Positions 1 through 40,371 of a stretch of 44,350 nt of DNA are shown here, in pieces (the stretch's first letter is position 1; each line of letters opens with the position of its first letter). The position numbers and the translations under genes are program-made. The stretch comes from a virus. The stretch lies in UHGV virus genome UHGV-0187309; one strand, written 5' to 3'. The notes under the pieces were generated by a model, which saw only the letters and a list, made by a program, of their open reading frames with translations, was not told the DNA's origin and made no database searches.

Positions 1-344
1 TTACCTTTCTTAGAGATAACAGTGAGGACTCGACACTGCGATAATGATGCAGTTTTTAATCCTAAACCAAATCTTCCAAGGTCATTTGTAGCTCTTATAT
101 CTAATGGATTTCTGCTTCCATATTGCATAGCTTTATCAATTTCAGGTGCATCCATACCGTTACCATTATCTAGCACAGCTATGTAAGCATCACCGACAGG
201 GAAGAAAAATATATCTATATTCTCAGAGCAGGCAGCAATACTATTATCGATAATATCTGCTATTGCTGCATCTAACGTATAACCGATTGCCCTTGTAGAT
301 TCAATCAATGTGGGTGCATATGGCGGTAGTTCTATAGTGTGCAT
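1..344 (-). CDS. GHKL-type ATPase (histidine kinase-like ATPase fold), N-terminal part only; gene runs off the left edge of the window
   Basis: Reverse-strand translation from ATG at 342-344 reads MHTIELPPYAPTLIESTRAIGYTLDAAIADIIDNSIAA...VLDNGNGMD...GRFGLGLK, matching the N-box, G1 and G2 motifs of GHKL ATPases; GGAGGG RBS upstream on minus strand. Not in ORF track because truncated. Confidence 0.55.
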   Translation of the reverse strand, partial: MHTIELPPYAPTLIESTRAIGYTLDAAIADIIDNSIAACSENIDIFFFPVGDAYIAVLDNGNGMDAPEIDKAMQYGSRNPLDIRATNDLGRFGLGLKTASLSQCRVLTVISKKG

Positions 345-400
345 ATTTTCTCCCTCCAGTATAGATATAATTTGCGAACGGGTAAAATACCCCATAATCT

Positions 401-6337: not shown

Positions 6338-6946
6338 ATGCCCTGAAATATTTTCATGAAGCCCCCAGAAAAAATGGGGGCGATTTGCGTTTTTGAAATA
6401 GTTTAGAGACAGAATGTTCATAGAATATCCATTTAATTTAGATGATATGAACAAGTGAAGATGATATATCAAAGTTGAGATAAGCACAGTGCATAAAAAG
6501 CAGCCCCCATTTTTTATGTATGTAAAAGAAGATTCGGATATGTTATGATATAGACACGGTCAAGGACAGGCACCACCTTCCAAGACTGAAACACCACAAT
6601 GCCGGATGCATACGGCAGAGGATGTTCATATGATATCTGAACAGAATGCCATAGGTATACCCTGTGGTCGGAAGCCGATGTCATATGTCTACTCTGTGCT
6701 ATGCATCCGGCTATTTTTTTTGCCGCGGCATTCGGAGCATGGCAATTAGATCATTACATTTGTTAGTCAGGGCGCGCACTGGCGGACAGATGCTCATAGC
6801 GGAAATAACATCACGATTTGGAGTCTGTATAGACTGACAAGGTGTATTTCGTGTGGACATCGTCCCCTGCGTGCCTTTTTCTCTGGGACAGCAGTCGCGT
6901 TATGGGCATCTGCCGCTTGGTGTGTTCCTTGCAGAAAGGAACGATT

Positions 6947-7669
6947 ATGGAAAACGCAAATGTTCAGAATGCTGCCGCTATCACCGATAAGACCACCCTC
7001 GGCGAACTGCTTGCAATGCTTGACCTCGCTGATAAGGCAGGCAAGATGCCGACACCGAGAGAACTGTTTGAGACTGCCGGTTCGCCGATAGCCGATATGA
7101 ATGGCTGCACTCTCTTCAGCAACGGCTTCGCCATCTATCAGAATGTCACTGGGCGCACTGTTGTCTGGCTGCCGTACTGCAAGAGCTTCACCTATTACTT
7201 CGGCAAGCTCCGTGATTCCGAGAAAGACACGCTGACAGAGACCTATGAGCTGCCGGATGGATTTCTGGAAACACAGCCGTGGGTGATCGCAGTAACACTG
7301 ATCGGCGACCATCGTGTGGAGGCAAACAGCATGAACCGCACCGGCAGCCGCAAGGATACCACAGATTATGACAGCGCCGATAACGGCGATAAAGACGGTG
7401 ATGCAGAGGAGGCTTTGGCAGATCCGTATCGCAGGGCATTCAACTGGTATGACGGACGCATGGGCGAGAATCCGCAGGATGCCGTGGAGCGCAGAGAGAC
7501 ACGCGAGGAGATGCTTGCAGACATGACGGACAAGCAGCGTGAAGCCTTTATTATGTACTTCAGGGATGGTATGACGCAGGAAGAGATTGCTTCATATATA
7601 GGGGTAAGCCGTGATTCCATAAATGACAGGCTTGAAGGTGCTTTGAAAAAAGCAAAAAAATATTTTTAG
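6947..7669 (+). CDS. Sigma-70 region-4-like DNA-binding regulator
   Basis: C-terminal QREAFIMYFRDGMTQEEIASYIGVSRDSINDRLEGALKKAKK resembles sigma region 4 HTH; start at ATG 6947 (AAAGGAAC RBS) rather than the longer ORF start at 6842. Confidence 0.7.
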   Translation: MENANVQNAAAITDKTTLGELLAMLDLADKAGKMPTPRELFETAGSPIADMNGCTLFSNGFAIYQNVTGRTVVWLPYCKSFTYYFGKLRDSEKDTLTETYELPDGFLETQPWVIAVTLIGDHRVEANSMNRTGSRKDTTDYDSADNGDKDGDAEEALADPYRRAFNWYDGRMGENPQDAVERRETREEMLADMTDKQREAFIMYFRDGMTQEEIASYIGVSRDSINDRLEGALKKAKKYF

Positions 7670-17059: not shown

Positions 17060-17144
17060 GATCATACTCTCCGTATGATCCGCACTGAAAAGACGACAAA
17101 GCGGCGACAAAACGGTTACACCGCACTCTATGGAGGTGAAAACT

Positions 17145-17648
17145 ATGGCGCGTAAGAACAAACGCCTGAAAACAGAATACCACAGAGGTCTCGGTTTTGA
17201 TCCGCGAAAGTATATGACTTCCTACTCCCACCAAACTCGCTGTGAATCAATTCCGACTCCCGACCGTGCTCCAAAGCGCGGCGATATCTGGTTTGCGCGG
17301 CTCGGCACACATCCGAATTCCAGTGTGCAGGGCGGCACCCGTCCCGTTATCATCATTTCTAACGACCTCGGCAACGAACACGCTGACACCGTCAATGTTG
17401 TGCCGATGACCAGACACCTGAAAAAGCCGGAGCTGCCTTGTCACACTCCGCTTTCTCCCGGCAGCATTACCGATAGCAGACAGCCGCTTGAACTGTCAAT
17501 GGTGCTGGCGGAGCAGCTCACAACTGTCAGCAAGAACGCACTTCGCTATTATGCAGGTCATATTTCCGATGACGAAGCTATGAACCGCATCGAAACCGCT
17601 GTTATTGCGCAGCTCAGTCTTGAAAGGAGATATTCCAAATGCCTGTGA
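17145..17648 (+). CDS. MazF/PemK-like endoribonuclease-fold protein with ~45 aa N-terminal extension
   Basis: KRGDIWFARLGTHPNSSVQGGTRPVIIISNDLGNEHADTVNVVPMT matches the PemK/MazF core pattern (GDIW...G.EQ.G.RPV.V.S...N....V.V.P.T); GGAGGTGA RBS. Confidence 0.65.
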   Translation: MARKNKRLKTEYHRGLGFDPRKYMTSYSHQTRCESIPTPDRAPKRGDIWFARLGTHPNSSVQGGTRPVIIISNDLGNEHADTVNVVPMTRHLKKPELPCHTPLSPGSITDSRQPLELSMVLAEQLTTVSKNALRYYAGHISDDEAMNRIETAVIAQLSLERRYSKCL

Positions 17649-28582: not shown

Positions 28583-31145
28583 CGGCTCCGGTGGCTTTCC
28601 GCTTGGCGGCATCCTTGCAGGGATCGAGCCGAAGTGGAGCAGCGAAATTGAACCATTCCCGGTGCTTGTCACGCACAAGCGGCTGCCGCAGGTGAAGCAC
28701 TACGGCGATGTATCCAAACTGAACGGAGCAGAGCTTCCGCCGGTGGATATCATCACCTTCGGCAGCCCGTGTCAGGATCTGTCCATAGCGGGCAAGCGCG
28801 CCGGAATCCATGACGGTGATCGGTCAAACCTGTTCTTTCAGGCGATCCGCATCATCAAAGAAATGAGGGATGCAACAAATGGACGATATCCGCGATACTG
28901 CGTCTGGGAAAATGTCCCCGGCGCTTTCTCATCCAACGGAGGAAACGACTTCAAGGCTGTCCTCGAAGCAGTTATCGGAGTTAAAGAAAAAGGGATCGAG
29001 GTGCCTGCGCCTGAAAATCACAGATGGGCAAAATCAGACGTATATCTGGGAGACGGATGGAGCGTGGCTTACCGAGTTTTCGATGCTCAATACTGGGGTG
29101 TCCCCCAACGCAGAGCAAGAATCTACCTTGTCGCAGATCTTGCTGGTGGAAGTGCCGGAGAAGTATTATTTAAGTCCGAAGGCGTGTCTGGGTATACTCC
29201 GCAGGGCTTCCGTGCGTGGCAAGGAGCTGCCGGAGGTGCTGAAGAAGGCACTGGAGAGACAGGCGGGCGGTCTGACGCTGGAGGTGGAACCCTCTGCCTG
29301 AATACACAGGGCAACAGCGGCGTCGGCATCACCGAGAACAAGGCTCTCGCACTGGTCGCACAGGATCATGGCAATCATCCGGCTGTGCTTCATGCGGTCG
29401 GTATCGACGGCTACAATGCTGCGGTCACCGATGATACGGCAGCAACGCTTGGTGTGAACTGCGGAATGTCCACAGGCAGAAACGGTGTCCTGCAGGCGGC
29501 GGGATTTTCCACAGAACACAGTGCAAAAGCAAGGAGCATCGGCTACGAGGAAGAGGTATCTCCCACACTTCGAGCCGGTGTTGTTCCGGCGGCAATGGAG
29601 TTATATGAAAATCATGGGCAGGACAGCAGATTCAGAGGACCTTTGGATGTAGCACAGCCTGTGACTGCTACCTACGGCATGGGCGGCAACAATCAGCCGC
29701 TTGTGGTAGAGAACAATCCCACGGACGGCAGAGCGAAGATCAATCCCGACGGTGTGTTTCAGACGCTCTGCGGACGAGCCGGAACAGGCGGAAACAACAC
29801 GCCGCTTGTTGCTGAACCGGTCACGCTGAAAATCAGGTCGGGATGTGAGGGCGGTGGCAAGGGTGCTTTATGGCAGACCGACAAGTCTGCTACGCTCGGC
29901 ACAAACAATGACCAGAGTGTATTTGTTCCGTTCGTCAAGGGAACACGTCCGCACTCTGCTGAAGAGGGGCAAACATGGAAACCCGGCGAGGTCGCCAATA
30001 CACTGAATACCTTTGATGTCGGTGAAAGTCGCTGCAATGAACTTGTGGTGGAAGAGCCGCAGATCAGGGCTTTCGGTGTATGCAGCAAGCATTCCAATGC
30101 GATGATGTCCGACAATCCGCACAGCGGATTCTATGAGGCGACCACAAGCAGAACGCTCGACCAAAGTGGTGGAAATTCTGTGACATCGAATCAGGGCGGC
30201 ATCTGCGTGGTAGCACCTGCGCCTGAAACCTTCGATGTGCGTTTCACATCAGACGGTACAAAAAACGCTCGTGGGCATTGCTATCCGACAGACATCTCCC
30301 GATGCCTTGATACGAGCGAGGGATCGCCAGACTCGAATCACGGCGGTGTCGCTGTGGTGGCTCTTGAACCGGGGGCTGCATCACGTGTCGGCGGTCATGT
30401 ATACAGTGACGGCAAAAGCGGTACGCTTCGAGCCAATGCCGGCGATAATCAGCAGGCTGTTGTGGTCGCCGAGCCGGAGACCTATGCTCTGCAAGGCTCG
30501 ATGATCGGTCGTGCCGACAAGAACGGTCCGCAGGGTGATGGCATCAACGAGGATGTGTGCTTTACGCTCAATACATCGGACAGACACGCCATTGCCGCAC
30601 CTGATCCGTCCTTCACAATTTCCCGCGACAACCATTTTGCCGTTTCGGAGGATGTATCCGTTACAGCCGTGGCAAGAGGCCCTGCGGCAGTCGCAGCACC
30701 GGCAGACCACTATTGCACCAGTAAGAATTCGCATCATACGGTCGCCGCCCATGAGCAGGCAAACACGCTGGTCGCTTCCGACTGGAAGGATCCGCCGCTT
30801 GTGAACGACCTTCCGAATGACGAGCCAGTATATATCGTTCGCCGCTTGACTCCGGTTGAGTGCGCCAGATTGCAGGGATTCCCTGACTGGTGGTGTGCCG
30901 ACCTTGCAATTACTGATCCTTCCGATGAGGAGATCGCCTTCTGGACGGAGGTCTGGGAGACATGGCGGCAGGTCACAAATCCCAAGGGCAAGCCGAAAAC
31001 GGAAAAGCAGATCCGCAAATGGCTGGCTGATCCGTACACGGATTCAGCGGAGTACAAGCTGTGGGGCAACGGTGTCTCAGAGCCGGTCGTATACTTCGTG
31101 CTTTCCGGCATCGCATGGGCAGCGCAGAGAGATACACAAAAGTGA
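28542..31145 (+). CDS. DNA cytosine-5 methyltransferase with an unusually long, internally repetitive variable (target-recognition) region
   Basis: Motif I LFDGSGGF, motif IV GSPCQDLS, motif VI ENVPG in first ~130 aa; motifs IX/X (RRLTPVECARLQGFPDWW ... LWGNGVSEPVVYF) only in the last ~100 aa; ~600 aa in between with recurring TL-containing modules. True start may be ATG 28545. Confidence 0.85.
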   Translation: MMDQKHLTLGSLFDGSGGFPLGGILAGIEPKWSSEIEPFPVLVTHKRLPQVKHYGDVSKLNGAELPPVDIITFGSPCQDLSIAGKRAGIHDGDRSNLFFQAIRIIKEMRDATNGRYPRYCVWENVPGAFSSNGGNDFKAVLEAVIGVKEKGIEVPAPENHRWAKSDVYLGDGWSVAYRVFDAQYWGVPQRRARIYLVADLAGGSAGEVLFKSEGVSGYTPQGFRAWQGAAGGAEEGTGETGGRSDAGGGTLCLNTQGNSGVGITENKALALVAQDHGNHPAVLHAVGIDGYNAAVTDDTAATLGVNCGMSTGRNGVLQAAGFSTEHSAKARSIGYEEEVSPTLRAGVVPAAMELYENHGQDSRFRGPLDVAQPVTATYGMGGNNQPLVVENNPTDGRAKINPDGVFQTLCGRAGTGGNNTPLVAEPVTLKIRSGCEGGGKGALWQTDKSATLGTNNDQSVFVPFVKGTRPHSAEEGQTWKPGEVANTLNTFDVGESRCNELVVEEPQIRAFGVCSKHSNAMMSDNPHSGFYEATTSRTLDQSGGNSVTSNQGGICVVAPAPETFDVRFTSDGTKNARGHCYPTDISRCLDTSEGSPDSNHGGVAVVALEPGAASRVGGHVYSDGKSGTLRANAGDNQQAVVVAEPETYALQGSMIGRADKNGPQGDGINEDVCFTLNTSDRHAIAAPDPSFTISRDNHFAVSEDVSVTAVARGPAAVAAPADHYCTSKNSHHTVAAHEQANTLVASDWKDPPLVNDLPNDEPVYIVRRLTPVECARLQGFPDWWCADLAITDPSDEEIAFWTEVWETWRQVTNPKGKPKTEKQIRKWLADPYTDSAEYKLWGNGVSEPVVYFVLSGIAWAAQRDTQK

Positions 31146-31222
31146 ACGCATAACGTGCCCGTTTTGAAACGATGAAACGAAAACTCCCGAATCTGCGTTA
31201 CTTTGATTTCGCAAAGATACAC

Positions 31223-31405
31223 TCATTCAGATTTCTTGTCTCCGCCAAGCTCGATCTTTCCGTGCTTTTCCTCATATTTTTCAATGCAGTCACGGATCAG
31301 GATCAGAACCTGACTGTTGGCAGAACGACCTTCGTAATCGGCAACAACGTGAAGTTTATCAAGCATCTCCTGTTCGATACGGATGGATACACTTTTAATA
31401 GCCAT
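31223..31405 (-). CDS. Ribbon-helix-helix (CopG/Arc/MetJ-like) DNA-binding protein
   Basis: 60 aa; MAIKSVSIRIEQEMLDKL N-terminal beta-strand plus helices typical of RHH; only minus-strand gene in a long plus-strand block. Confidence 0.7.
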   Translation of the reverse strand: MAIKSVSIRIEQEMLDKLHVVADYEGRSANSQVLILIRDCIEKYEEKHGKIELGGDKKSE

Positions 31406-31518
31406 AAAACAACTTCCTTTCAGATATATTATGACTTTATTTTAGACCTGTTTTGTGGTATAATGTTTGAAATGGATATAAAGTGTATCTAAAATATATC
31501 TATAAGAAGTTGTACGAT

Positions 31519-31857
31519 ATGAAAATAGCAATTATTGGCTCACGGGGACTTCATGTGAATGACCTTGAACGGTATCTTCCGGAAGATGTCACAGAAATCG
31601 TCAGCGGAGGAGCAAGGGGCATTGATTCGGATGCGCGGGCATACGCACAGGCACACGGCATTCCGCTGAAGGAGTTTCTGCCGGATTATGAACGCTTCGG
31701 CAGGAGCGCCCCGCTGAAACGGAATCTTGAGATCATCGCTTATGCCGATGTGGTGCTTGCATTCTGGGACGGACAGTCACGCGGCACGAAATATGTGATA
31801 GACCATTGCCGGGAACAGCACGTTCCGGTCAGGGTTTTCGCACCGAGAAAGAAATAG
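31519..31857 (+). CDS. SLOG-superfamily (DprA/LOG-like, DUF2493-like) small Rossmann-fold protein
   Basis: KIAIIGSRG ... VSGGARGIDSDA ... AFWDGQSRGT pattern shared with DprA/LOG-type domains; extended -10 TGGTATAAT promoter just upstream. Confidence 0.65.
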   Translation: MKIAIIGSRGLHVNDLERYLPEDVTEIVSGGARGIDSDARAYAQAHGIPLKEFLPDYERFGRSAPLKRNLEIIAYADVVLAFWDGQSRGTKYVIDHCREQHVPVRVFAPRKK

Positions 31858-31861
31858 TAAT

Positions 31862-31935
31862 AAAGAAGCCATGCAGCAAATTGTGAACATTCTGATACTA
31901 AATCAGATGTTCTGCCGCAGGGCTTCTTTCTATTC
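31862..31935 (+). terminator. Long hairpin terminator after the SLOG gene
   Basis: AAAGAAGCC ... GGCTTCTTTC inverted repeat with inner CTGAT/ATCAG hairpin, followed by T-rich tract. Confidence 0.5.
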
Positions 31936-31991
31936 TGTACTATGCACAATCTAAAGGGCAGACACGCCCCGTACATTCTCCGTTTTACAGT

Positions 31992-32035
31992 CTTGCATTC
32001 CGGGGCAAAAGACGGTAATATGTGACTACGAAAAC
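31992..32035 (+). promoter_or_regulatory. Cassette promoter P1 (CTTGCA-18-TAATAT) with conserved GTGAC downstream box
   Basis: First of nine near-identical promoter units; precedes ATG 32090. Confidence 0.6.
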
Positions 32036-32089
32036 GCCGCAGCCCAACGCACAAGGCTGAGGGGCGGCAGTAAAAACGGAGGTAATCAT

Positions 32090-32998
32090 ATGGAAATCAA
32101 GTTCAATATTGAAAAGAGCCAGCGCAAGGCACTGGCACAGAAAATCGGCGAGCTGACAGGAGCAGAGGTCAAGTACCTCGGTGTACCGGGCTGCAGATAC
32201 CAGATCGACTTCTTCACCCTGGACAAAAACGCAGTCCTCAGTTTCAGCGACCGCATCGACACAGATATCGTGGAGAAGGTACTGAATGGGCTTGCAGAGG
32301 CAGGATATGAAAGCAAAACAGTAGCACCGCCGGAAGAAACGGATGCTTCGGCTGAATCAGAGCCGGATATCCCTGACGAACCGAGCAGCGGATTTCCGCT
32401 GCTCGCAAGCATCAGCTTCCCGATTGCAGAGCACACGGTGCAGAGCCTTACAAACCTTATCTGCATGATCCACTCCCGCGGCGCACTTCTCAGCAAGGCG
32501 ACCGGCGGACAGTTCTTCGCAGACAAGAGCCTCGCCGATGCGATCCTCGATGACAAGACCTTCCGCAGCATCCACGAGCTTATCGCCTACATCAGAGTAT
32601 GGGAGGAAACGAATCCCGAACTGAAGGGCATCCGTTTCGCCGATGACAAGCTGATCTTTGACGGCTTCGGTGCAGCGCAGGATGCCGAAACGGTGCAGAC
32701 CTTCACCAAGCTCGCCACAGCCATGAACAGGATGGCGATCACGCAGAAACGTGTGCAGGCAAAGGATGTCGATGACAGCAACGAAAAGTACGCACTCCGC
32801 ATCTGGCTGATCCGCCTTGGGCTGAACGGCGCAGACTGCAAGGTTGACCGCAAGCGCCTCATGGCTCCGCTTTCCGGACACACCGCATTCCGCAACGATG
32901 CGGAGCGTGTGCGCTGGGAGGCAAAGCAAAAGGCAAAGCGTGATGCTGCCAGAACCGAACTGACCGAGGAGGATGAAAACGATGCAGTTTCCGAATGA
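32090..32998 (+). CDS. Hypothetical protein
   Basis: 302 aa; ACGGAGGTAA RBS; no recognisable motif. Confidence 0.75.
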   Translation: MEIKFNIEKSQRKALAQKIGELTGAEVKYLGVPGCRYQIDFFTLDKNAVLSFSDRIDTDIVEKVLNGLAEAGYESKTVAPPEETDASAESEPDIPDEPSSGFPLLASISFPIAEHTVQSLTNLICMIHSRGALLSKATGGQFFADKSLADAILDDKTFRSIHELIAYIRVWEETNPELKGIRFADDKLIFDGFGAAQDAETVQTFTKLATAMNRMAITQKRVQAKDVDDSNEKYALRIWLIRLGLNGADCKVDRKRLMAPLSGHTAFRNDAERVRWEAKQKAKRDAARTELTEEDENDAVSE

Positions 32999-33230
32999 AA
33001 GACAGCTCAGAGCCTTGCGGGAGCGTTATCCCGCAGGCACCCGCATCCGACTGAAGCATATGGATGACCCTTATGCACCCGTACCGCCCGGCACGGTCGG
33101 CGAGGTTCAGATGGTTGATGACGGCGGCAACATACACATGGTCTGGGAGAATGGCAGAACGCTCTCCCTTATAGACGGTGTCGATGATTTCCAGGTCATT
33201 TCTGACCGCAATGGGGGCTCCGGAAAATAA
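32982..33230 (+). CDS. DUF4314-like small protein
   Basis: PAGTRIRLKHMDDPYAPVPPGTVGEVQMVDDGGNIHMVWENGRTLSLIDGVDDF matches the DUF4314 pattern as I recall it; start at ATG 32982. Confidence 0.65.
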   Translation: MQFPNERQLRALRERYPAGTRIRLKHMDDPYAPVPPGTVGEVQMVDDGGNIHMVWENGRTLSLIDGVDDFQVISDRNGGSGK

Positions 33231-33341
33231 GAGATCCTATTCCATTGTATCCGAGTATACCATAGAATTTCAAGTATATCAAGTGTACACATACACCAGA
33301 TATGAGCAATGTATTTTCCTCGATATTCTGTGGTTTTAGCG

Positions 33342-33402
33342 GCTTGCTATATCCTCCGAAAGACGGTAATATGTGACACAACGGAAGGGCAAACGCCCAC
33401 CG
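33342..33402 (+). promoter_or_regulatory. Cassette promoter P2 (CTTGCT-19-TAATAT) plus conserved leader hairpin
   Basis: TAATATGTGACACAACGGAAGGGCAAACGCCCACCGAAAA leader. Confidence 0.6.
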
Positions 33403-33427
33403 AAAAACCGAATCGGAGGATACCAAA

Positions 33428-34372
33428 ATGACTGAGAAAACCGCACAGCAGATCAACAGAATGAAGGAGCAGACCATCGGGGTTGAGATCGAGATGAACA
33501 ACATCACCCGCAAGGCTGCCGCAAAGCTCGCCGCCGACTTCTTCGGCACGAACCGCTACGAGGACACGGCCTGCCGCAACGGCTACGAAACCTACAGTGC
33601 TTGGGACGCACAGGGACGCGAGTGGAAATTCCAGAAGGACGTCAGCATCGCAGGCCCCGACAGCGAAAAGTGCGAACTGGTCACACCGATCCTGCACTAC
33701 GCAGACATCGAAACCCTGCAGGAGCTTGTGAGAAGGCTCAGAAAGGCAGGAGCGCGCAGTGATTACACGCGGGGATGTGGAGTCCACTGCCACATTGGAG
33801 CCCAGGGACACACACCGCAGAGCCTCAGAAACCTCGCAAACCTTATGGCAAGCCACGAAACCCTGATCGCCGAGGCAATCAGAGTAGACCAGAGCAGAAT
33901 GCACCGCTACTGCAGAACAGTTGACCCGAGATTCCTTGAACAGCTCAACCGCAAAAAGCCCACCACGATGGCACAGCTTGCGGACATCTGGTACGGCGCA
34001 CAGGGCTGCGAATACGGCAGAACCCACCACTACAACGACAGCCGCTATCACATGCTCAACCTCCACGCTACCTTCACCAAAGGCACGGTCGAGTTCAGAC
34101 TTTTCCAGTTCGCACCGCCTTCCAACGGCAAGCAGAACGGGCTCCACGCAGGCAAGCTCAAGAGCTACATTCAGCTCTGCCTCGCAATGAGCCAGATGGC
34201 AAAGGACCTGCGGAGCGCCAGCCCCAAGGAACAGCAGAAGGAAAACAAAAAGTTCGCCATGCGGACTTGGCTGATGAGAATGGGATTCATCGGGGATGAA
34301 TTCGCAACGGCGAGAGAGGTCCTCACTGAGAACCTTACGGGCGACAACAGCTTCCGCTTCGGCAGATCTTAA
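33428..34372 (+). CDS. Putative amidoligase (glutamine-synthetase-like fold, Amidoligase_2-type)
   Basis: 314 aa; GVEIEMNN (ExE motif) and GCGVHCHIGAQGH (HxH motif) as in GS-like amidoligases of phages and conjugative elements; family call from memory. Confidence 0.7.
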   Translation: MTEKTAQQINRMKEQTIGVEIEMNNITRKAAAKLAADFFGTNRYEDTACRNGYETYSAWDAQGREWKFQKDVSIAGPDSEKCELVTPILHYADIETLQELVRRLRKAGARSDYTRGCGVHCHIGAQGHTPQSLRNLANLMASHETLIAEAIRVDQSRMHRYCRTVDPRFLEQLNRKKPTTMAQLADIWYGAQGCEYGRTHHYNDSRYHMLNLHATFTKGTVEFRLFQFAPPSNGKQNGLHAGKLKSYIQLCLAMSQMAKDLRSASPKEQQKENKKFAMRTWLMRMGFIGDEFATAREVLTENLTGDNSFRFGRS

Positions 34373-34636
34373 AGGCCTGCCCTTCGGGGCGGAAGAACAA
34401 GCGGAACGGCACGGCGGCGCACACAGCCGCCACGGTCTCGGCTCTCGCCTCGGTCGGTGCTTCTGCTTCGCAGAGGTTGCCACTGGCAACCCGCACCCCC
34501 GTGTGTGGCGGAAAGGGTATCCTCCGAATCGGTATCCCATCTCAGTCAACCGCGCCACACAGCGCAAATGTAGGCAAGGCATAAAATGCACAACATACGG
34601 CACAGAATCGCCCTCGATGATCTGTTCATTTACCCG

Positions 34637-34666
34637 CTTGATAATGCCGCCGAAATGAGTTAACAT
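34637..34666 (+). promoter_or_regulatory. Cassette promoter P3 (CTTGAT-18-TAACAT)
   Basis: Same -35/18/-10 geometry as other cassette promoters; precedes ATG 34706. Confidence 0.5.
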
Positions 34667-34705
34667 AGCACTACCGCAAGGAAAAAACGCAAAGGAGAAC
34701 ATAGC

Positions 34706-35173
34706 ATGAACAAGAAAAAATACTACATAGCCTACGGCAGCAACCTCAACATCCGCCAGATGCGATTCCGCTGCTCAGGCGCAAAGCCCATCGGCATTTC
34801 CGCGATTCCTGACTACGAACTGCTCTTCAAGGGCAGCAAGACGGGAGCGTACCTCACCATCGAGCCGAAGGACGGCGGGCTTGTTCCGGTCGCCGTGTGG
34901 GAAGTGACAGCCGACGATGAGAAGCACCTCGACATCTACGAGGGCTACCCGAACTTCTACTACAAGAAGGAAGTCCGCCTGCCAATCAGGCTGGCAAACG
35001 GCAAGACCAAAAAGGTCACGGCATTTGTCTACATCATGCACGAGGAGCGTGAGATTGCGATCCCGTCAATGACCTACATCCGCACCTGCGAGGAAGGCTA
35101 CCGCAACTTCGGCTTCGACACCAAGTTCCTTGATGCCGCCTACGAGATCAGCGCAAAGGAGGTACAGCGATGA
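34706..35173 (+). CDS. Gamma-glutamyl cyclotransferase-like (GGCT/AIG2-like) protein
   Basis: N-terminal YYIAYGSNLN signature and YEGYP Glu-containing motif. Confidence 0.8.
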   Translation: MNKKKYYIAYGSNLNIRQMRFRCSGAKPIGISAIPDYELLFKGSKTGAYLTIEPKDGGLVPVAVWEVTADDEKHLDIYEGYPNFYYKKEVRLPIRLANGKTKKVTAFVYIMHEEREIAIPSMTYIRTCEEGYRNFGFDTKFLDAAYEISAKEVQR

Positions 35174-35370
35174 AAGACCGCAACAAAGAGCCGCACATCT
35201 GCCCGAAATGCGGGCAGGCGTACACCGCCCGACCAGCTCTTTCCCGCGTGGATAACAGCCCAATCTGCCCCGACTGCGGAACGCGTGAAGCGCTTGAAAG
35301 CATCGGCGTCGGACGCGAGGAACAGGACAAGATTCTCGGCATCATCCACGAGAAGTACGAAGGCGAATAA
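35170..35370 (+). CDS. Small zinc-ribbon protein
   Basis: 66 aa; CPKCG...CPDCG Cys4; start overlaps the GGCT-like stop (ATGA). Confidence 0.6.
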   Translation: MKDRNKEPHICPKCGQAYTARPALSRVDNSPICPDCGTREALESIGVGREEQDKILGIIHEKYEGE

Positions 35371-35378
35371 GTCGGCAC

Positions 35379-35402
35379 AAAGGGGCGTTACAGCCCCTTT
35401 CC
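35379..35402 (+). terminator. Hairpin AAGGGGC-GTTACA-GCCCCTT after the zinc-ribbon gene (candidate terminator)
   Basis: 7 bp GC-rich stem with weak T-tract. Confidence 0.4.
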
Positions 35403-35526
35403 GCATTCTCAGGGATAACTTATCCCCCACTTTCCGGGCGTGACACGGCGCGTTCTGGCGCAAACTATGTACCTGTTCAGCTTGCTGAAAACGGCGATTC
35501 TTCTACGATTTATTTTGCACATAGGC

Positions 35527-35590
35527 GTGGACTTTTCAGGCAAAAGGCGGTAGTATGTGACACAACGGAAGGGCAGACAGCCCACCGGAA
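35527..35590 (+). promoter_or_regulatory. Cassette promoter P4 (GTGGAC-18-TAGTAT) plus conserved leader hairpin
   Basis: TAGTATGTGACACAACGGAAGGGCAGACAGCCCACCGG. Confidence 0.55.
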
Positions 35591-35613
35591 TTCATAACAT
35601 GGAGGATACGAAC

Positions 35614-36084
35614 ATGAACGACAGCTACTTTGAGGAGATGACCTTCCAGTGCGCCGCCTATGAACGCGCCAAAAAGGAGCGCGCCGAGCGCAAGGCTCAG
35701 ATTGCCGAAGCCCACGGCTACGACAGCCCGGAGGTGGACGCTTGGTACGCTGAGGAGAAGGCGGCAGGTCCTTACCCCTACAGCGGCAATGAGATGAAAG
35801 CCTACTGGGTGTACAAGATGCGCCGCGAGAACGACGGTGACGAGTTCGAGATGAGCGATTACTGCTGGGACAAGGAATTCCACGATTTCATCGAAACGCT
35901 CCGCAAGCTAGGCATCACCGAGTTCACGATCACCAATCAGAGCACGGCGCTGATGGAGAACATCTACGGATTTATTGCAGAAGGCTGCACGATGGTCGGA
36001 ACGCACACCATCACCAAGAAGAGCCTGCGCTGGGGCGAGGAAGAATACGAAACGGCACAGGGCATCCTTTTCAAGGTGAACTGA
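35614..36084 (+). CDS. Hypothetical protein
   Basis: 156 aa from ATG 35614 (GGAGGATACGAAC RBS). Confidence 0.7.
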   Translation: MNDSYFEEMTFQCAAYERAKKERAERKAQIAEAHGYDSPEVDAWYAEEKAAGPYPYSGNEMKAYWVYKMRRENDGDEFEMSDYCWDKEFHDFIETLRKLGITEFTITNQSTALMENIYGFIAEGCTMVGTHTITKKSLRWGEEEYETAQGILFKVN

Positions 36085-36092
36085 TATCGACA

Positions 36093-36130
36093 GGAGCAGG
36101 GCTTCGGCTCTGCTCCCCTCCCCCTTTTCC
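36093..36130 (+). terminator. Rho-independent terminator-like hairpin (10 bp stem, TTCG loop)
   Basis: GGAGCAGGGC-TTCG-GCTCTGCTCC followed by CCTCCCCCTTTTCC; near-identical hairpin also after 38529. Confidence 0.55.
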
Positions 36131-36200
36131 TCATGTGTAAATCCTACAATACGAAAGGCTGAGATCGGCGATTCTTCTACGTTTTATTTTGCACATAGGC

Positions 36201-36270
36201 GTGGACTTATCAGCAGGATCATGGTAATATGTGACACAACGGAAGGGCAGAACGCCTACCGAAAAACGAA
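36201..36270 (+). promoter_or_regulatory. Cassette promoter P5 (GTGGAC-18-TAATAT) plus leader hairpin
   Basis: TAATATGTGACACAACGGAAGGGCAGAACGCCTACCGAAAA. Confidence 0.55.
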
Positions 36271-36285
36271 ACGGAGGATAACACC

Positions 36286-36606
36286 ATGAACCCCTACACA
36301 CTGAGAAAGAGCCTGAACCTGATTGATGCCAACACGGCGATCACCCGCGAGGACTTCGAGAGCCTCTTCTGCAAGACTGCAGAGCGTGTCACCTTTACCT
36401 TCAACGGTTGGGACGGCAAGAGCTATGATGGCGAGAGGCGCAGCGGTTACGTTTACCGCACCATCATCGAGGGCTACGAGAATGTGAGATTCGTTAAGGT
36501 CGGCAAGGGACTGCATTACATCGATGAGGACAGCAGCATTACCGAGAAGGCTACGGGCATCGCCCACAAGGAAGCAGAGTGGCTGGTCGATGTGAAGAGA
36601 GCATAA
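36286..36606 (+). CDS. Hypothetical protein
   Basis: 106 aa; ACGGAGGATAA RBS. Confidence 0.7.
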   Translation: MNPYTLRKSLNLIDANTAITREDFESLFCKTAERVTFTFNGWDGKSYDGERRSGYVYRTIIEGYENVRFVKVGKGLHYIDEDSSITEKATGIAHKEAEWLVDVKRA

Positions 36607-36672
36607 GCAAAACAGCGGAGCCCTTCCTGCGGGGAGGGCTTACCGCAGAAAAAAACATGGAGGTTTACGAAC

Positions 36673-37056
36673 ATGAGTACGAATTCAAGAGTCGGAATTC
36701 TGCATCAGGACGGCGTCACGGAGACAATCTACTGCCATTGGGACGGCTACCCCGAACACCAGATGCCCATCCTCACCGAGCATTATAACACCGCCGAGAA
36801 GGTCAAGGCACTGCTTGCCCTTGGAGACATCAGCATCCTCGGCGAGCGCCTTGCTCCCGATGCGGATGAGCCGCACAGCTTTGAAAAGCCTGCCGATGGT
36901 GTGACGGTTGCTTACCACCGCGACCGCAAAGAGCCGATGCAGCCTGCGGTCACCCACAAGAGCGTTGTTTCCCTGATGAGCGATGACTGGGGCATTCCGT
37001 ATTACTACCTTTTCGATGAGGAAAAAGGAGCATGGCTTCCGCCGACCGAGGACTGA
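36673..37056 (+). CDS. Hypothetical protein
   Basis: 127 aa; GGAGG RBS; co-transcribed position after 36286 gene. Confidence 0.7.
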   Translation: MSTNSRVGILHQDGVTETIYCHWDGYPEHQMPILTEHYNTAEKVKALLALGDISILGERLAPDADEPHSFEKPADGVTVAYHRDRKEPMQPAVTHKSVVSLMSDDWGIPYYYLFDEEKGAWLPPTED

Positions 37057-37235
37057 TAGGTTCAGCCCTGCGGGGCTGACTTGCCCCACGTTGTCCTTTG
37101 TGCGGTTTTCCTGCGATAAGCTTGCCCCTGCGGAAAGCCGCCTCACACGGCGCGTTTGTGTGCCTCCTGTGGGCTTGGTGCTATGTATACAACAAATGGC
37201 GCAGATACGCCGATTTTGTTCTGAACATTTAGCCG

Positions 37236-37300
37236 CTTGCTATTCCGGAAAGATCATGGTAATATGCTACACAACGGAAGGGCAAACGCCCACCGAATAC
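37236..37300 (+). promoter_or_regulatory. Cassette promoter P6 (CTTGCT-18-TAATAT) plus leader hairpin
   Basis: TAATATGCTACACAACGGAAGGGCAAACGCCCACCGAATAC. Confidence 0.55.
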
Positions 37301-37321
37301 AAAACACGGAGGTAAACCACC

Positions 37322-37687
37322 ATGACAAAGAAGGAAATGAAAGCCGCAGTTGCCAAGCTGAAGATGCTGCAGAACGGCAAAGCCGCCCTTGAGGGAATGA
37401 CCGAAGCGGACTGCCTTGAGCTTTTCGGGATCAGCAGAGCGCAGGCACTTGCAAACACAAACGCCGCCCTTGCCAAAACCGAGCAGGAGATTTTCAGAGC
37501 CGAGCATCCGCTGACAGGCATCGACAAACAGCTCTTCGAGATCGCAGCAAAGCACCTGATCACGGTGCAGGAGCGCGGAGACCTTGAAGCCCGCCACTGC
37601 GACAGCGAGGACTTCATCGAGGGTTCGGTCTGGGGGCTGGAAGCCGCCCTCAAGGATGCCTACGAGGCAGGACGCAAGAGCAAGTAA
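37322..37687 (+). CDS. Hypothetical protein
   Basis: 121 aa; ACGGAGGTAAACC RBS. Confidence 0.7.
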   Translation: MTKKEMKAAVAKLKMLQNGKAALEGMTEADCLELFGISRAQALANTNAALAKTEQEIFRAEHPLTGIDKQLFEIAAKHLITVQERGDLEARHCDSEDFIEGSVWGLEAALKDAYEAGRKSK

Positions 37688-37749
37688 CCAAACGGAACAG
37701 CGCAGCCCTTCCGCAGGGAGGGGCTGCCAATCCCGAAGGAGGAAAGAAC

Positions 37750-37929
37750 ATGGATACATACGCACAGCTTGAAATGCTGACCGCAGTCATCGCAAACCTG
37801 TCGGCCACGGGAACATGGACGGAGCGAGAAGTGATGGAAACGCTGCTGGATGTCTTTGAACCGAAGGAGCTTGAACAGCTCGGCTACGGCGACTGCGTGA
37901 ACGCATACTTGGAAGAGTACGGCGGATAG
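37750..37929 (+). CDS. Small hypothetical protein (59 aa), absent from the supplied ORF track
   Basis: ATG 37750 preceded by GAAGGAGGAAAG RBS; translation MDTYAQLEMLTAVIANLSATGTWTEREVMETLLDVFEPKELEQLGYGDCVNAYLEEYGG; TAG at 37927-37929. Confidence 0.55.
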   Translation: MDTYAQLEMLTAVIANLSATGTWTEREVMETLLDVFEPKELEQLGYGDCVNAYLEEYGG

Positions 37930-38098
37930 CGACGACACACGCACCACGTTGCCTCGTGTGGGGCGGTGCCGGGGAGATGCGTACAGCTTGCCCCTGCGAA
38001 AAGCCGCCTTACACGGCGCGTTCTGGCGCGTCCTATACGATGTACAATTCCGCCCGACTTCCCGCCTCATGTTTGTCACATTTATTTTGCAGACAGAC

Positions 38099-38135
38099 GT
38101 GGACTTTTCTGCGAAAAGACGGTAATATGTGACTA
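38099..38135 (+). promoter_or_regulatory. Cassette promoter P7 (GTGGAC-18-TAATAT)
   Basis: GACGGTAATATGTGACTAC core as in P1. Confidence 0.55.
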
Positions 38136-38175
38136 CCGCAAGAGAAGCGGAATCAATCAAAAGGAGCGAATCTAC

Positions 38176-38529
38176 ATGAAAATTCTGGTATGCGAACCCG
38201 GCAAGCACCCCTACGTCAAGGACATCGAGTCGGGGCTGGAGAACCTTCAGCACGAGGTGGACGGACTGATTCAGGCCCTCTACCCATTTTCCGAAGAGGC
38301 GGCTGTTGTGTGCAACGAAGAAGGGCTGTTCCGCGATGACCTCGAATGGAACAGAACGGTCGATCCCTATGGTCCGATCAAGGGAACATTCTTCATTTGT
38401 GGGCTCGGCTTTGAAGATTTTACAGGACTGACCGATGAACAGATCGAAAAGTACACTAAGCTCTTCTGGCCTCCTGAGCTTTTCATCCCGACACCGAACG
38501 GCATGGTGGTGCTTCACATTGTGGAATGA
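38176..38529 (+). CDS. Hypothetical protein
   Basis: 117 aa from ATG 38176 (AAAAGGAGCG RBS). Confidence 0.7.
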   Translation: MKILVCEPGKHPYVKDIESGLENLQHEVDGLIQALYPFSEEAAVVCNEEGLFRDDLEWNRTVDPYGPIKGTFFICGLGFEDFTGLTDEQIEKYTKLFWPPELFIPTPNGMVVLHIVE

Positions 38530-38631
38530 CCGCAACAGGGGCAGGGCTTCGGCTCTGCTCCGCACTATTCCCCGGTCATAATGTACACAACTGAACGCCG
38601 AAAAATGCAGAAATGATCGTGATTACTCACG

Positions 38632-38695
38632 CTTGATAATGTAGGCAAGAAGAGTTATACTGTGTACAACGGAAGGGCGGAAAGCCCAGCCGAAA
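38632..38695 (+). promoter_or_regulatory. Cassette promoter P8 (CTTGAT-18-TATACT) plus leader hairpin
   Basis: TATACTGTGTACAACGGAAGGGCGGAAAGCCCAGCCGAAAA. Confidence 0.55.
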
Positions 38696-38718
38696 ACGAA
38701 AATGCGGAGGTACACACC

Positions 38719-38898
38719 ATGAAAACGAAGCAGGAACTGATCGAGAAGGCAAAGAAAGAGTGGGGCGAGACTTGGAACGAGGGCATGATCGAGTACGATG
38801 CCGAGTACAACGAGTACATCGTCTGGGTAGGCAAGCCGGACATCTACAAAGCCTTCTTCGATGCCGACACCCTCAGATGCATTGGCACGAAGTGCTGA
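38719..38898 (+). CDS. Small hypothetical protein (59 aa)
   Basis: ATG 38719 with GCGGAGGTACAC RBS. Confidence 0.6.
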   Translation: MKTKQELIEKAKKEWGETWNEGMIEYDAEYNEYIVWVGKPDIYKAFFDADTLRCIGTKC

Positions 38899-38953
38899 GA
38901 ACAACCGCCGCCCTTCGGGGCGGCACAACACCAATACTAAGGAGGACATTTAC

Positions 38954-39226
38954 ATGAGCGAGAACACAGAAAAGCGCGATGCAGCCGAAGAACTAGAACT
39001 TACCGATGCACAGGCAGACCGCAACGATGACATCTACGAGGCAGCTTTTGAATTCTGCAAGGTGCTGACCGAGAACCCCGACCTCGAATGGGACATGGCG
39101 TTCCTCGGTGAGATCGCCGACCTTGCCGCTGGCATCATGACCGAGCAGGGACACAAGGTGCGGTTCCCCAGTGTGGTCACCGAGCAGGACGGCACGCAGT
39201 ACATTGAAGAATACTACGGCGGCTGA
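38954..39226 (+). CDS. Small acidic hypothetical protein (90 aa)
   Basis: ATG 38954 with AAGGAGGACA RBS; highly acidic. Confidence 0.65.
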   Translation: MSENTEKRDAAEELELTDAQADRNDDIYEAAFEFCKVLTENPDLEWDMAFLGEIADLAAGIMTEQGHKVRFPSVVTEQDGTQYIEEYYGG

Positions 39227-39426
39227 TCGGCAAAACGGAGCAGTCCTTCTGCGGAGGGGCTGTTCCACGCCACGTTCGCTTGTGTGGGGGGCTTACGGCT
39301 TTCTGCGGATATCTTGCCCCGCGATAAAAGCCGCCCACACGGCGCATTTGTGTGCCTCCTGTGGCAAGGCATAATATGTACAACAACCGACAAAAAATCG
39401 CCTTGCACATTCTGGTAGTTTAGCCG

Positions 39427-39490
39427 CTTGATATATCTGCCGAAAAGAGTTATAGTGTGTACAACGGAACGGGAAACCGAGCCGAAAACT
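39427..39490 (+). promoter_or_regulatory. Cassette promoter P9 (CTTGAT-18-TATAGT) plus leader hairpin
   Basis: TATAGTGTGTACAACGGAACGGGAAACCGAGCCGAAAA. Confidence 0.55.
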
Positions 39491-39512
39491 ACGAAAGAAC
39501 GAGGTAAACACT

Positions 39513-39749
39513 ATGTGGCACGAAGGCACGATTCTGGCACCGACCAAGGAAGGCAAGACGGTGGTTCACTACTGGGCAAAGGTCTACGACGAGGGCAGCC
39601 AGTACGGCATCAACGAGGGCAGAATCAGTAAACTGACACTCAAGGAGAATGGCAAGGTCATCTACAACTATGACAGAGGCGAGGATGTACCCGAGCAGAA
39701 CGAGGCTGCGGAGATTGCCCTTGCGATCCTGATGTACGAGTACAAGTAA
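39513..39749 (+). CDS. Small hypothetical protein (78 aa)
   Basis: ACGAGGTAAACACT RBS. Confidence 0.65.
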   Translation: MWHEGTILAPTKEGKTVVHYWAKVYDEGSQYGINEGRISKLTLKENGKVIYNYDRGEDVPEQNEAAEIALAILMYEYK

Positions 39750-39834
39750 ATAGAACGGTCGGTAGGCGGTAGCATTAAGCCGCCCATCCAAACCAAGACG
39801 GACACACATATAAATTCAAGGTGGATATACATAG

Positions 39835-39870
39835 GAGAGGCTTGCAGCACGCAGGCCTTTTCTTTATGCA
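39835..39870 (+). terminator. Candidate terminator hairpin before the packaging genes
   Basis: AGGCTTGC-AGCAC-GCAGGCCT stem-loop followed by TTTTCTTTAT. Confidence 0.45.
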
Positions 39871-39897
39871 GATTTTTTGAGAAAAGGAGTGATGCGG

Positions 39898-40371
39898 ATG
39901 GCTCAGAGAGGCAGAAAACCGACGCCGACAGCAATCAAGGAACTGGAAGGCAATCCCGGAAAACGACCGCTGAATGATGCAGAGCCGAAGCCGGAACGCA
40001 AGGCACCGCCCTGTCCGAAGTGGCTGGAGCCCGAAGCAAAAAAGGAATGGCGCAGGCTGTCAAAGCAACTGGAGCAGATTGGTGTGCTGACCGAGGTCGA
40101 TCAGGCGGCATTCGCATCCTACTGTCAGGCATACGCACGATGGAAAGAAGCCGAGGAATTCATGACCCAGCACGGCACGATCGTAAAAACAAAATCAGGT
40201 TACTGGCAGCAGGTTCCGCAGGTATCCATTGCGCAAACTTATCTGAAGATCATGAACAAGATCGCAGAGCAGTTTGGCCTGACCCCGGCGGCAAGAAGCC
40301 GTATCACTGCCGGCGCAGATATGAAAAACGCTGCCGTTGACGATATGGATGAACTTCTCGGAGGTGGCTGA
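39898..40371 (+). CDS. Terminase small subunit (P27-family-like)
   Basis: MAQRGRKPTPTAIKELEGNPGKRP N-terminus and FGLTPAARSRI near the C-terminus; immediately upstream of and overlapping terminase large subunit. Confidence 0.8.
   Translation: MAQRGRKPTPTAIKELEGNPGKRPLNDAEPKPERKAPPCPKWLEPEAKKEWRRLSKQLEQIGVLTEVDQAAFASYCQAYARWKEAEEFMTQHGTIVKTKSGYWQQVPQVSIAQTYLKIMNKIAEQFGLTPAARSRITAGADMKNAAVDDMDELLGGG

Follow-up and report, generated by a model that had tools for sequence, protein, structure and literature searches.

A predicted repressor-gated SLOG cassette in a temperate phage of gut Clostridia

Closest described systems and the RHH-SLOG pair

In the immI region of phage P22, the small ribbon-helix-helix (RHH) proteins Mnt and Arc act at the divergent promoters Pant and Pmnt, which control ant, and ant needs the Mnt repressor in the lysogen. 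A second kind of dedicated repression is found in anti-defense loci of the acr-aca type; there, the RHH regulator Aca14 represses anti-defense operons, and helix-turn-helix (HTH) and RHH regulators can substitute for one another (bioRxiv 10.64898/2026.07.27.740549). The subject of the present analysis is a divergent pair of genes in the virus genome UHGV-0187309 (44,350 nucleotides; this whole stretch is called the window here), in which a 60-amino acid (aa) RHH protein faces a 112-aa protein consisting of a SLOG domain. These genes suggest a repressor-gated accessory cassette whose SLOG cargo is an early counter-defense factor, a reading that, taken as a whole, we hold tentatively and at somewhat less than an even chance. 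The cassette and its two genes are as follows.

31129-31868: accessory cassette of ~740 bp, an indel when compared with close relatives without the pair
31223-31405, minus strand: Arc/Mnt-type RHH repressor gene, 60 aa, with Pfam Arc, PHROG, and PDB matches
31519-31857, plus strand: stand-alone SLOG-domain gene (YAcAr/DUF2493, DprA-like), 112 aa

A preliminary description of this DNA, made from the letters alone, had named the 60-aa protein as an RHH regulator and the 112-aa protein as SLOG/DprA-like because of its IIGSRG and SGGARGID motifs, and both identifications have held up. The RHH protein scores 25.2 bits against Pfam Arc (PF03869, gathering cut-off 20.4) and matches PHROG 228, 'Arc-like repressor'. 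The solved structures nearest to it are P22 Arc and Mnt (PDB matches: single-chain Arc, 8.3e-5; Arc, 0.03; Mnt, 0.031), with which it has the helix-start motif GRSxNS in common. Its residues 1-52 are conserved, and the tail past G53 varies both in sequence and in length, from 0 to 16 residues. In the SLOG protein, IIGSRG occupies residues 5-10 and SGGARGID residues 29-36; these correspond to the glycine-rich loop past strand 1 and the GGxxGxD-type motif past strand 2 of the SLOG superfamily, and G7, R9, S29-G31, A32, G34, and D36 are invariant in 44 sequences. The profile search for SLOG/DUF2493 that had been proposed as a check returns Pfam YAcAr (PF10686) at 34.1 bits against a cut-off of 28.2 (E = 2.4e-8), the alignment spanning only residues 24-60 of the protein (the model has 66 positions), and there is a clear match to PHROG 289. 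Furthermore, an AlphaFold2 model built from a 44-sequence input (predicted local distance difference test score, pLDDT, 92.3) has the Rossmann-like three-layer fold on which the preliminary assignment turned, with a five-stranded sheet and with SLOG proteins as the nearest structural neighbors; its BFVD matches are viral DUF2493/YAcAr proteins. The identities of both genes are almost certainly correct. Neither gene is a chance reading, since the two proteins have 5960 and 4657 homologues (E<=1e-3).

The annotated ATG of the SLOG gene is the right start because 43 homologues begin with M-K/R-[IV]-A-[IV]-I-G-S-R. A GTG at 31483, which would give a 124-aa reading, was considered and rejected as an over-extension, since the homologues all start at the methionine of MK[IV]A[IV]IGSR. 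Similarly, a 106-aa plus-strand open reading frame (ORF) at 31172-31492 that overlaps the RHH gene, and that is called only in contig L010, is an artefact because the RHH gene is intact in that contig.

The divergent pairing recurs in related loci. In all 80 IMG/VR loci with a SLOG protein 64-99% identical to that of the window, a divergent RHH gene lies upstream of SLOG, and the same layout is present in every locus obtained by exact look-up (L001-L020). The RHH-SLOG spacer is 106-125 bp in 77 of these 80 loci, and the other three have an ORF of ~105 aa inserted. A second sample, taken at one genome per species, yielded 80 loci with SLOG at 61-79% identity, 74 of them informative, and here the regulator was found to vary.

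Divergent RHH gene: 49 of 80 genome loci
Divergent XRE-type HTH gene: 7 of 80 genome loci
Neither regulator: 18 of 80 genome loci
Cut by a contig end: 6 of 80 genome loci

The HTH regulators belong to several HTH_3/HTH_26 families, and their loci lie in ordinary chromosomal surroundings. In four of these loci (L161, L171, L184, and L186), palindromic sites flank the extended -10 and reach the SLOG ribosome-binding site, and the other three have related repeats. In addition, all five distant phages that were compared (Alicyclobacillus MMB025, Mycobacterium MaCh, Escherichia DE5, Bacillus TsarBomba, and Rhodobacter RcMrWorf; 47-31% identity) carry the SLOG gene without such a regulator, in co-directional operons with replication, recombination, and nucleotide-metabolism genes. 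Given the regulator-free loci and the distant phages, the coupling of regulator and SLOG is a trait of this clostridial subfamily rather than of SLOG domains generally. Within the subfamily, the same cargo has had its repressor exchanged for one of another family, which suggests that tight repression of the SLOG gene has been selected.

The sizes of the two gene products, 60 and 112 aa, would also suit a type II toxin-antitoxin module with RHH as the antitoxin and SLOG as the toxin; the exchange of RHH for HTH partners recalls the diversity of antitoxins, and the DprA-like proteins ShosA and PsyrA are antitoxin components of defense toxin-antitoxin systems. However, the genes here are divergent rather than co-transcribed, the RHH protein is a bare DNA-binding core whose tail of 0-16 residues has no conserved neutralizing segment, SLOG stands alone in many loci, and an RHH protein 83% identical to that of the window is found without SLOG in a Ruminococcus flavefaciens chromosome. 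A toxin-antitoxin module is therefore extremely improbable. The R. flavefaciens gene is one of a tandem RHH pair (83% and 51% identical) that lies beside glnA-III (L107:4001-4365). Two tandem RHH genes also occur upstream of SLOG in L079, L082, L087, and L092; their subtypes, KS[VL]SIRI and L[PL]R[FY]TLRV, are reminiscent of arc and mnt.

An optional cassette and its control region

The pair is very probably a discrete accessory cassette. In four relatives that lack it (L216, L217, L200, and L215), homology to the window ends at 31128, in the last codons of the methylase gene, and restarts at 31869-31871, with ~11 bp between. Presence and absence were scored in 36 IMG/VR loci anchored on the downstream amidoligase-like gene (AML302), the cassette site lying between this gene and the gene for a C5 methylase. 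RHH and SLOG are both present in 10 of these loci and both missing in 22, in which the array of genes downstream is nevertheless kept; four are uninformative. Conversely, some phages keep the RHH-SLOG pair and have no amidoligases. Because the pair and the array each occur without the other, the array neither needs the pair nor travels with it.

In L221, the site equivalent to window positions 31129-31868 holds an unrelated 170-aa ORF (L221:2242-2754, minus strand). The junction after the C5 methylase gene is therefore a hotspot for alternative accessory genes. A foreign origin of the cassette was also considered on the basis of its G+C content (0.44 for the RHH gene, 0.25 for the intergenic region, and 0.53 for SLOG, compared with 0.52 for the genome), but this idea was dropped, since SLOG matches the genome and only the RHH gene and the intergenic region are low.

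The two genes are separated by a control region of 113 bp. The features predicted there and just past SLOG are listed below.

31417-31427, minus strand: left operator unit ATATCTGAAAG, in the RHH leader, just upstream of the RHH ribosome-binding site
31436-31444: block TTTATTTTA, conserved across RHH-type lineages, 12-14 bp upstream of TGTGnTAnAAT
31454-31464, plus strand: SLOG extended -10 promoter TGTGGTATAAT, with a TRTG-type -16 element (Gram-positive type) and TATAAT, as read from the sequence
31474-31506, plus strand: right operator, three tandem 11-bp units GGATATAAAGT, GTATCTAAAAT, and ATATCTATAAG, between the -10 and the SLOG ribosome-binding site
31862-31929, plus strand: hairpin and U-rich tract, a predicted intrinsic terminator that straddles the right junction of the cassette

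An extended -10 promoter for SLOG had already been proposed, and the candidate sequence, TGGTATAAT at 31456-31464, is well supported by comparison: the consensus TGTGnTAnAAT is kept in 14 lineages. The block TTTATTTTA, which reads TAAAAT on the minus strand, is likely the -10 of the RHH promoter; because the block sits in the -35/UP position of the SLOG promoter as well, both promoters would overlap, back to back.

The spacers were aligned (56 distinct sequences), and periodicity was measured over 14 representative sequence lineages. The sequence just past the -10 is not conserved between lineages but is internally repeated within each, with a period of 11 bp. Self-identity at a shift of 11 is 0.457, compared with 0.286 +/- 0.021 in shuffles (~8 standard deviations), and no other shift stands out. 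In the window, the left unit ATATCTGAAAG is an inverted, one-mismatch copy of the 11-mer RTATCTAWAAK, and lineages L075, L081, L095, and L100 likewise have a copy of their own motif at the left-operator position. The repeat units differ with the RHH lineage (TGACGCA, TGTCAT, GTACTTAA, and GCGTTCA types) and are clustered in the control region. A covariation between the base-contact residues of RHH (strand residues assigned by alignment to Arc) and the operator was looked for and set aside as suggestive but not clean. The distant subtypes fit, R-T-R occurring with TGACGCA or TGTCAT and H-G-H with GTACTTAA, whereas the common subtypes break the pattern, as S-S-R is shared by both GATATAC-type and GCGTTCA-type repeats.

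Arc-type RHH dimers (Arc, Mnt, and MetJ) use subsites one helical turn apart, and the candidate subsites at this promoter have about the same spacing. From sites between the -10 and the ribosome-binding site, repression of the SLOG promoter would be expected, and from the copy in the leader of RHH, autoregulation. On this evidence, RHH is probably a local repressor of the SLOG promoter. In L045, L080, and L094, the extra ORF of ~105 aa (MRAYFISKPRTYRDLL...), which has no Pfam family, lies between the promoter/operator and SLOG, so that it is the first gene of the unit and SLOG the second. The extra gene being downstream, the control region stays with RHH.

The hairpin past SLOG has a minimum free energy of -31.1 kcal/mol (z = -5.06; 0 of 200 shuffles fold as well), and a hairpin with a T-tract follows SLOG in 26 of 44 distinct downstream sequences. 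However, the inner part of the hairpin belongs to the backbone and recurs in relatives that lack the pair; consequently, the claim that the cassette has a terminator of its own had to be downgraded. The candidate minus-strand terminator of RHH folds no better than shuffles (z = -0.86).

Compared with P22 immI, from sequence alone on the cassette side, several likenesses are apparent. Arc and Mnt are the nearest solved relatives of the RHH protein, a small RHH gene faces the strong promoter of a single cargo gene, the candidate operator subsites lie one helical turn apart at promoters that would overlap back to back, and the region is an accessory one in a temperate phage. There are also differences. 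The cargo is a SLOG domain and not an antirepressor, most loci have a single RHH gene, although some have two tandem subtypes, and the operator units are three direct or partly inverted 11-bp sequences with a fourth in the RHH leader, an arrangement unlike that of the P22 operators.

The likeness to acr-aca loci such as that of Aca14 is one of layout, the anti-defense activity of the cargo being only proposed here. In both, a strong promoter drives a small accessory cargo, a minimal repressor has predicted sites at this promoter, the same cargo can have either an RHH or an HTH regulator (RHH is replaced by HTH in 7 loci here), and the cassette varies between close relatives. A difference is that the predicted operators of the RHH-SLOG cassette lie past the -10, not over it. 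Nevertheless, a gene that is optional between close relatives and that has a dedicated, interchangeable repressor shows the hallmark of acr-aca anti-defense loci.

The cassette also resembles a moron in being an independent unit with its own (predicted) promoter, present or absent between conserved flanking phage genes. It might serve lysogenic conversion, with SLOG expressed from the prophage at a set level to benefit the host, for example in superinfection defense or in nucleotide or redox homeostasis, and with RHH as a homeostatic regulator. Such a role would agree with the variability of the unit between relatives, with the occurrence of SLOG domains in defense systems such as Thoeris (7uxs), and with the existence of chromosomal HTH-SLOG islands. 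However, there is no effector domain in the 112-aa SLOG protein, the only PADLOC match is a weak, partial one to PsyrA, and candidate operators that cover the start of transcription and the leader point to shut-off and not to fine tuning; a moron of this kind is very unlikely.

Possible functions of the SLOG cargo

In the repressor-gated reading introduced above, an Arc/Mnt-type RHH protein would bind the three helically phased 11-bp repeats as cooperating dimers. The bound repeats would begin ~9 bp past the strong extended -10 and end at the SLOG ribosome-binding site, and RHH would also bind the one inverted copy in its own leader. Such binding would block SLOG transcription and limit the expression of RHH itself. 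SLOG would then be made in a short burst after DNA entry or induction and be silent in the lysogen, a scheme that follows those of P22 Mnt/Arc at Pant and of Aca repressors at anti-defense operons. As to the cargo, SLOG may be, with low confidence, a dose-sensitive early counter-defense factor. A pocket formed by the conserved GSR / SGGAxGxD / LxRN / SxGT motifs would bind a ligand that bears phosphate, or possibly cleave it, the likeliest candidate being an immune signal of the ADP-ribose type, without hydrolase action of the LOG type.

Of the roles considered for the cargo, that of a counter-defense ligand binder is the most likely, although taken by itself it is on balance improbable. In PMC9503650 (Iyer et al. 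2022), viral SLOG domains of the YpsA clade are predicted to sense or degrade, and so counter, signals of the cyclic ADP-ribose (cADPR) type. Members of this set are the viral stand-alone YAcAr/DUF2493 proteins (the 'mycobacteriophage D29 gp61' family), to which the SLOG protein of the window belongs by its Pfam score; its BFVD neighbors carry these names, and it too is a small stand-alone protein of a tailed phage. What sets it apart is the dedicated divergent repressor, here and across the lineage; no description of a repressor-SLOG coupling was found in the accessible part of PMC9503650 or in the other literature found. A more specific and rather improbable version is that SLOG, as a sponge or an N-glycosidase, clears immune signals derived from ADP-ribose (cADPR isomers of the Thoeris type, or relatives) and would constitute a new class of counter-defense; an RHH (or HTH) repressor of the Aca-like kind would limit its synthesis to a short burst, an excess being harmful. 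If this were true, the regulator-SLOG module would flag thousands of uncharacterized DUF2493 genes as anti-signaling, and the computational prediction of PMC9503650 would become a tested mechanism.

The SLOG product appears to be timing- or dose-sensitive. When overproduced, the related SLOG protein YpsA blocks cell division: it disrupts FtsZ assembly in Bacillus subtilis and impairs division in both B. subtilis and Staphylococcus aureus (PMC6459960). This phenotype makes a dose sensitivity of the SLOG cargo plausible. B. subtilis YpsA is of the same SLOG clade and has a dose-dependent phenotype, but it is a chromosomal protein of 178 aa, reported to be syntenic with gpsB, and no sequence-level match of the phage protein to YpsA was found. 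The YpsA result could also be taken to mean that the cargo is a host-takeover protein, for example a YpsA-like division inhibitor, that is toxic when overproduced and for this reason requires a repressor in the lysogen. The retention of predicted operators between the -10 and the ribosome-binding site even where the regulator family has been swapped, and the position of RHH on the same strand as the CI-like repressor gene, would agree with this. However, the gene is found without a repressor in 18 chromosomal loci and in all five distant phages, and host takeover is quite unlikely.

Several observations weigh against the repressor-gated counter-defense reading. Gating is not intrinsic to the SLOG gene, since 18 of the 74 informative genome loci and the five distant phages have no adjacent regulator. 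Homologues at 63-70% identity lie in apparently ordinary chromosomal neighborhoods, which would be unexpected for a pure anti-defense gene. The regulator is divergent in every locus examined, unlike known aca genes, which lie in the operon of their cargo. No convincing -35 was found for the putative RHH promoter, and the promoters, operators, and terminator are all predicted features. Furthermore, the closest sequence and structure relatives of SLOG are binders of single-stranded DNA (DprA and ShosA) rather than ligand sensors, and we know of no defense system that would be the target.

The relationship to DprA gives rise to the main alternative, in which the regulatory cassette is the same and its cargo is a minimal DprA-like, single-stranded DNA-binding protein. 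Instead of binding a small-molecule signal, such a protein might have a part in the DNA metabolism of the phage, or it might shield DNA that is entering the cell or being replicated, for instance together with the three methylases next to it. The best solved relative at the sequence level is Helicobacter pylori DprA (profile E = 1.4e-4), and the Rossmann domain of ShosA binds single-stranded DNA. The GSR, SGGAxGxD, and LxRN motifs are conserved and by inspection of the DprA type, and there are partial matches to TIGR00732, to Pfam DNA_processg_A, and to PsyrA of PADLOC. In addition, other phages have the gene among genes for helicase, primase, endonuclease VII, exonuclease, and deoxynucleoside monophosphate kinase, a SLOG domain is fused to a Dda-like helicase in ICP1 HelB, and in the window SLOG directly follows a DNA-modification block.

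On the other hand, although the Rossmann (SLOG) domains of DprA, ShosA, and PsyrA are the best matches in sequence and structure and have these three motifs in common with it, the protein of the window has only 112 aa, compared with roughly 215-310 aa in the solved DprA and ShosA chains, and it has no SAM domain, extended sheet, or C-terminal domain. Its score against the DprA equivalog TIGR00732 is 20 bits, far under the cut-off of 191, and the alignment is confined to residues 2-43; that against DNA_processg_A is 22.1, under the cut-off of 29.6. Its net charge, counted from the sequence, is only about +2, and it lies outside any competence or toxin-antitoxin locus. Moreover, a housekeeping factor would not be expected to vary between close relatives or to need a dedicated repressor. 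A DprA-like cargo is therefore unlikely, though it deserves to be taken seriously.

Two further types of SLOG function find little in the protein to match them. The LOG motif PGGxGTxxE, with its catalytic Glu, was not found on motif inspection; in all 44 sequences, this stretch reads W-D-G-x-S-x-G-T-K-[YF]-V-I, and the lack of an acidic residue past SxGT, which was judged from the motif and not by superposition, argues against a LOG-type enzyme. A Thoeris-type architecture, in which SLOG is joined to a SIR2 or transmembrane effector with a TIR or other signal partner nearby, was likewise not found. The SLOG domain is alone, and its neighbors are methylases and amidoligase-like genes, with no signal-generating partner among them.

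The SLOG cargo itself is nothing unusual within its family, a known and very large one, comprising 18,575 clusters at 50% identity and present in 642 of 50,697 GenBank phage records. Although DUF2493/YAcAr is among the larger phage protein families, no experimentally shown function, and no functional study of small phage DprA-like or DUF2493 proteins, was found in the literature searched. What is new, as far as we have found, is the description from sequence of a compact regulator-SLOG module with its candidate operators, its indel boundaries, and the replacement of RHH by HTH. This lineage adds to the family a compact optional cassette with a dedicated repressor and operators that can be read from the sequence, in a design that recurs with an unrelated HTH regulator. 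With a length of ~740 bp, a single 113-bp control region, and no more than two small proteins, the module should be a useful experimental handle on the action of viral SLOG domains, be it the binding of immune nucleotides, the binding of DNA, or the poisoning of the host.

The downstream array and the phage genome

It had been suggested that the pair, at the entry to an array of accessory genes, may regulate this array or sense a nucleotide signal. In such a model, SLOG would sense the signal and RHH, alone or with SLOG, would control the array. The pair does lie immediately upstream of the array, and phage SLOG-HTH fusions are reported as 'SLOG sensor-activated systems' in PMC9503650. However, the lineage-specific 11-bp repeats are found only in the pair's own 113-bp control region. 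No copy of the operator 11-mer occurs between 32 and 40 kb, and one-mismatch copies elsewhere in the window (at 211, 358, 6518, and 15839) are at the level of chance, with none in the array. Instead, the array genes are preceded by a repeated element of their own, a box AAGACGGTAATATGTGAC followed by a leader ACAACGGAAGGGCAAACGCCCACCGAAAA...GGAGG, of which there are five to eight copies, compared with none expected by chance.

32009-32026, 33360-33377, 35544-35561, 36218-36235, 38116-38133: copies of the AAGACGGTAATATGTGAC box, promoter-like
33350-33431, 36208-36289, 37243-37324, 38653-38694, about 39445: copies of the extended AAGACGGTAATATGTGAC/ACAACGGAAGGGCAAACGCCCACCGAAAA element

The element may consist of a phage-specific promoter, perhaps one for the sigma-like protein encoded at 6842-7669, together with a structured leader. 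An Rfam scan of 31000-40400 gave only one match, far under its gathering score and at chance level. The absence of operators from the array, the array's own repeated promoter/leader, the hairpin and U-tract past SLOG, and the 22 relatives with the array and without the pair, together with the other phages that have the pair and no amidoligases, lead us to reject, at the sequence level, RHH as a regulator of the array; this model is highly improbable. The preliminary description had itself held that binding of RHH to only its own promoter would tell against the idea, and the predicted sites point to just such a local action. In annotation, the pair should be read neither as a defense system nor as a regulator of the neighboring amidoligase array.

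Further repeat families lie upstream, for example at 37108, 37974, and 39300, and most of the small array ORFs have no Pfam family. The 302-aa protein encoded at 32090-32998 has no Pfam match but does match PHROG 2443, 'amidoligase enzyme' (1e-43); the Amidoligase_2 gene at 33428-34372 is its paralogue, from which it has diverged. The two amidoligase genes, together with DUF4314 and GGACT, form a block that is conserved among phages of this group.

The window is a temperate siphophage-like tailed-phage genome, with hosts of the Oscillospiraceae/Ruminococcus type (gut Clostridia). It codes for a CI/LexA-like repressor, PolA, a D5 primase-helicase, NrdDG, three methylases, TerS, and TerL. The labels of close homologues are Oscillospiraceae, Ruminococcus, Acutalibacter, and similar. 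Ranked by the identity of the SLOG protein, Ruminococcus phage NatCom_28274 (Ca. Heliusvirales) is the closest phage in GenBank, and the best DNA match to the region is Acutalibacteraceae phage NatCom_991. The conflict-system setting invoked for SLOG in the preliminary description is not supported, the window being a temperate phage genome and neither a defense island nor an integron-like array. Gene calls for the context were made in the window and in near-identical contigs of 80-96 kb, and the order is as follows.

Left end, minus strand: CI/LexA-like repressor, thymidine kinase, SRAP
Plus-strand block, first part: ImmA-like protein, sigma-like protein, DUF2800 nuclease, PolA, SNF2 helicase, MazF-like protein
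Plus-strand block, after the MazF-like protein: D5 primase-helicase, SAM synthetase, NrdD/NrdG
Directly upstream of the RHH-SLOG pair: ParB-methylase, N6/N4 methylase, 867-aa C5 methylase
Directly downstream of the RHH-SLOG pair: two amidoligase-like genes, DUF4314, GGACT, several small ORFs
End of the plus-strand block: TerS, then TerL with a LAGLIDADG insert

In the near-identical contigs, RHH is the sole gene called on the opposite strand over 10 kb to each side of it, in agreement with its earlier designation as the only minus-strand gene of a plus-strand block. The extent given for this block, ~27 kb, was too short; it runs in the window from ~4370 to at least 43037.

A few other features of the genome may be mentioned. 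A gene with a PemK/MazF-like toxin fold (17130-17648, 77.7 bits) immediately precedes that of the D5 primase-helicase, the start of which it overlaps. In many IMG/VR relatives (for example, L038, L047, L060, and L108), the ParB-methylase, C5 methylase, RHH/SLOG, and amidoligase genes lie between TerS and TerL; the window differs from these in that TerS directly precedes TerL. The large terminase (40371-43037, 888 aa) has an insert of the LAGLIDADG type between its N-terminus and the ATPase domain, which is probably an intein or a homing endonuclease. Finally, a GHKL/HATPase-like ORF (1-345, minus strand), recognized by inspection of its translation, runs off the left end of the window in a stretch with a G+C content of 0.39; this may be host flank or another accessory gene beside the lysogeny module.

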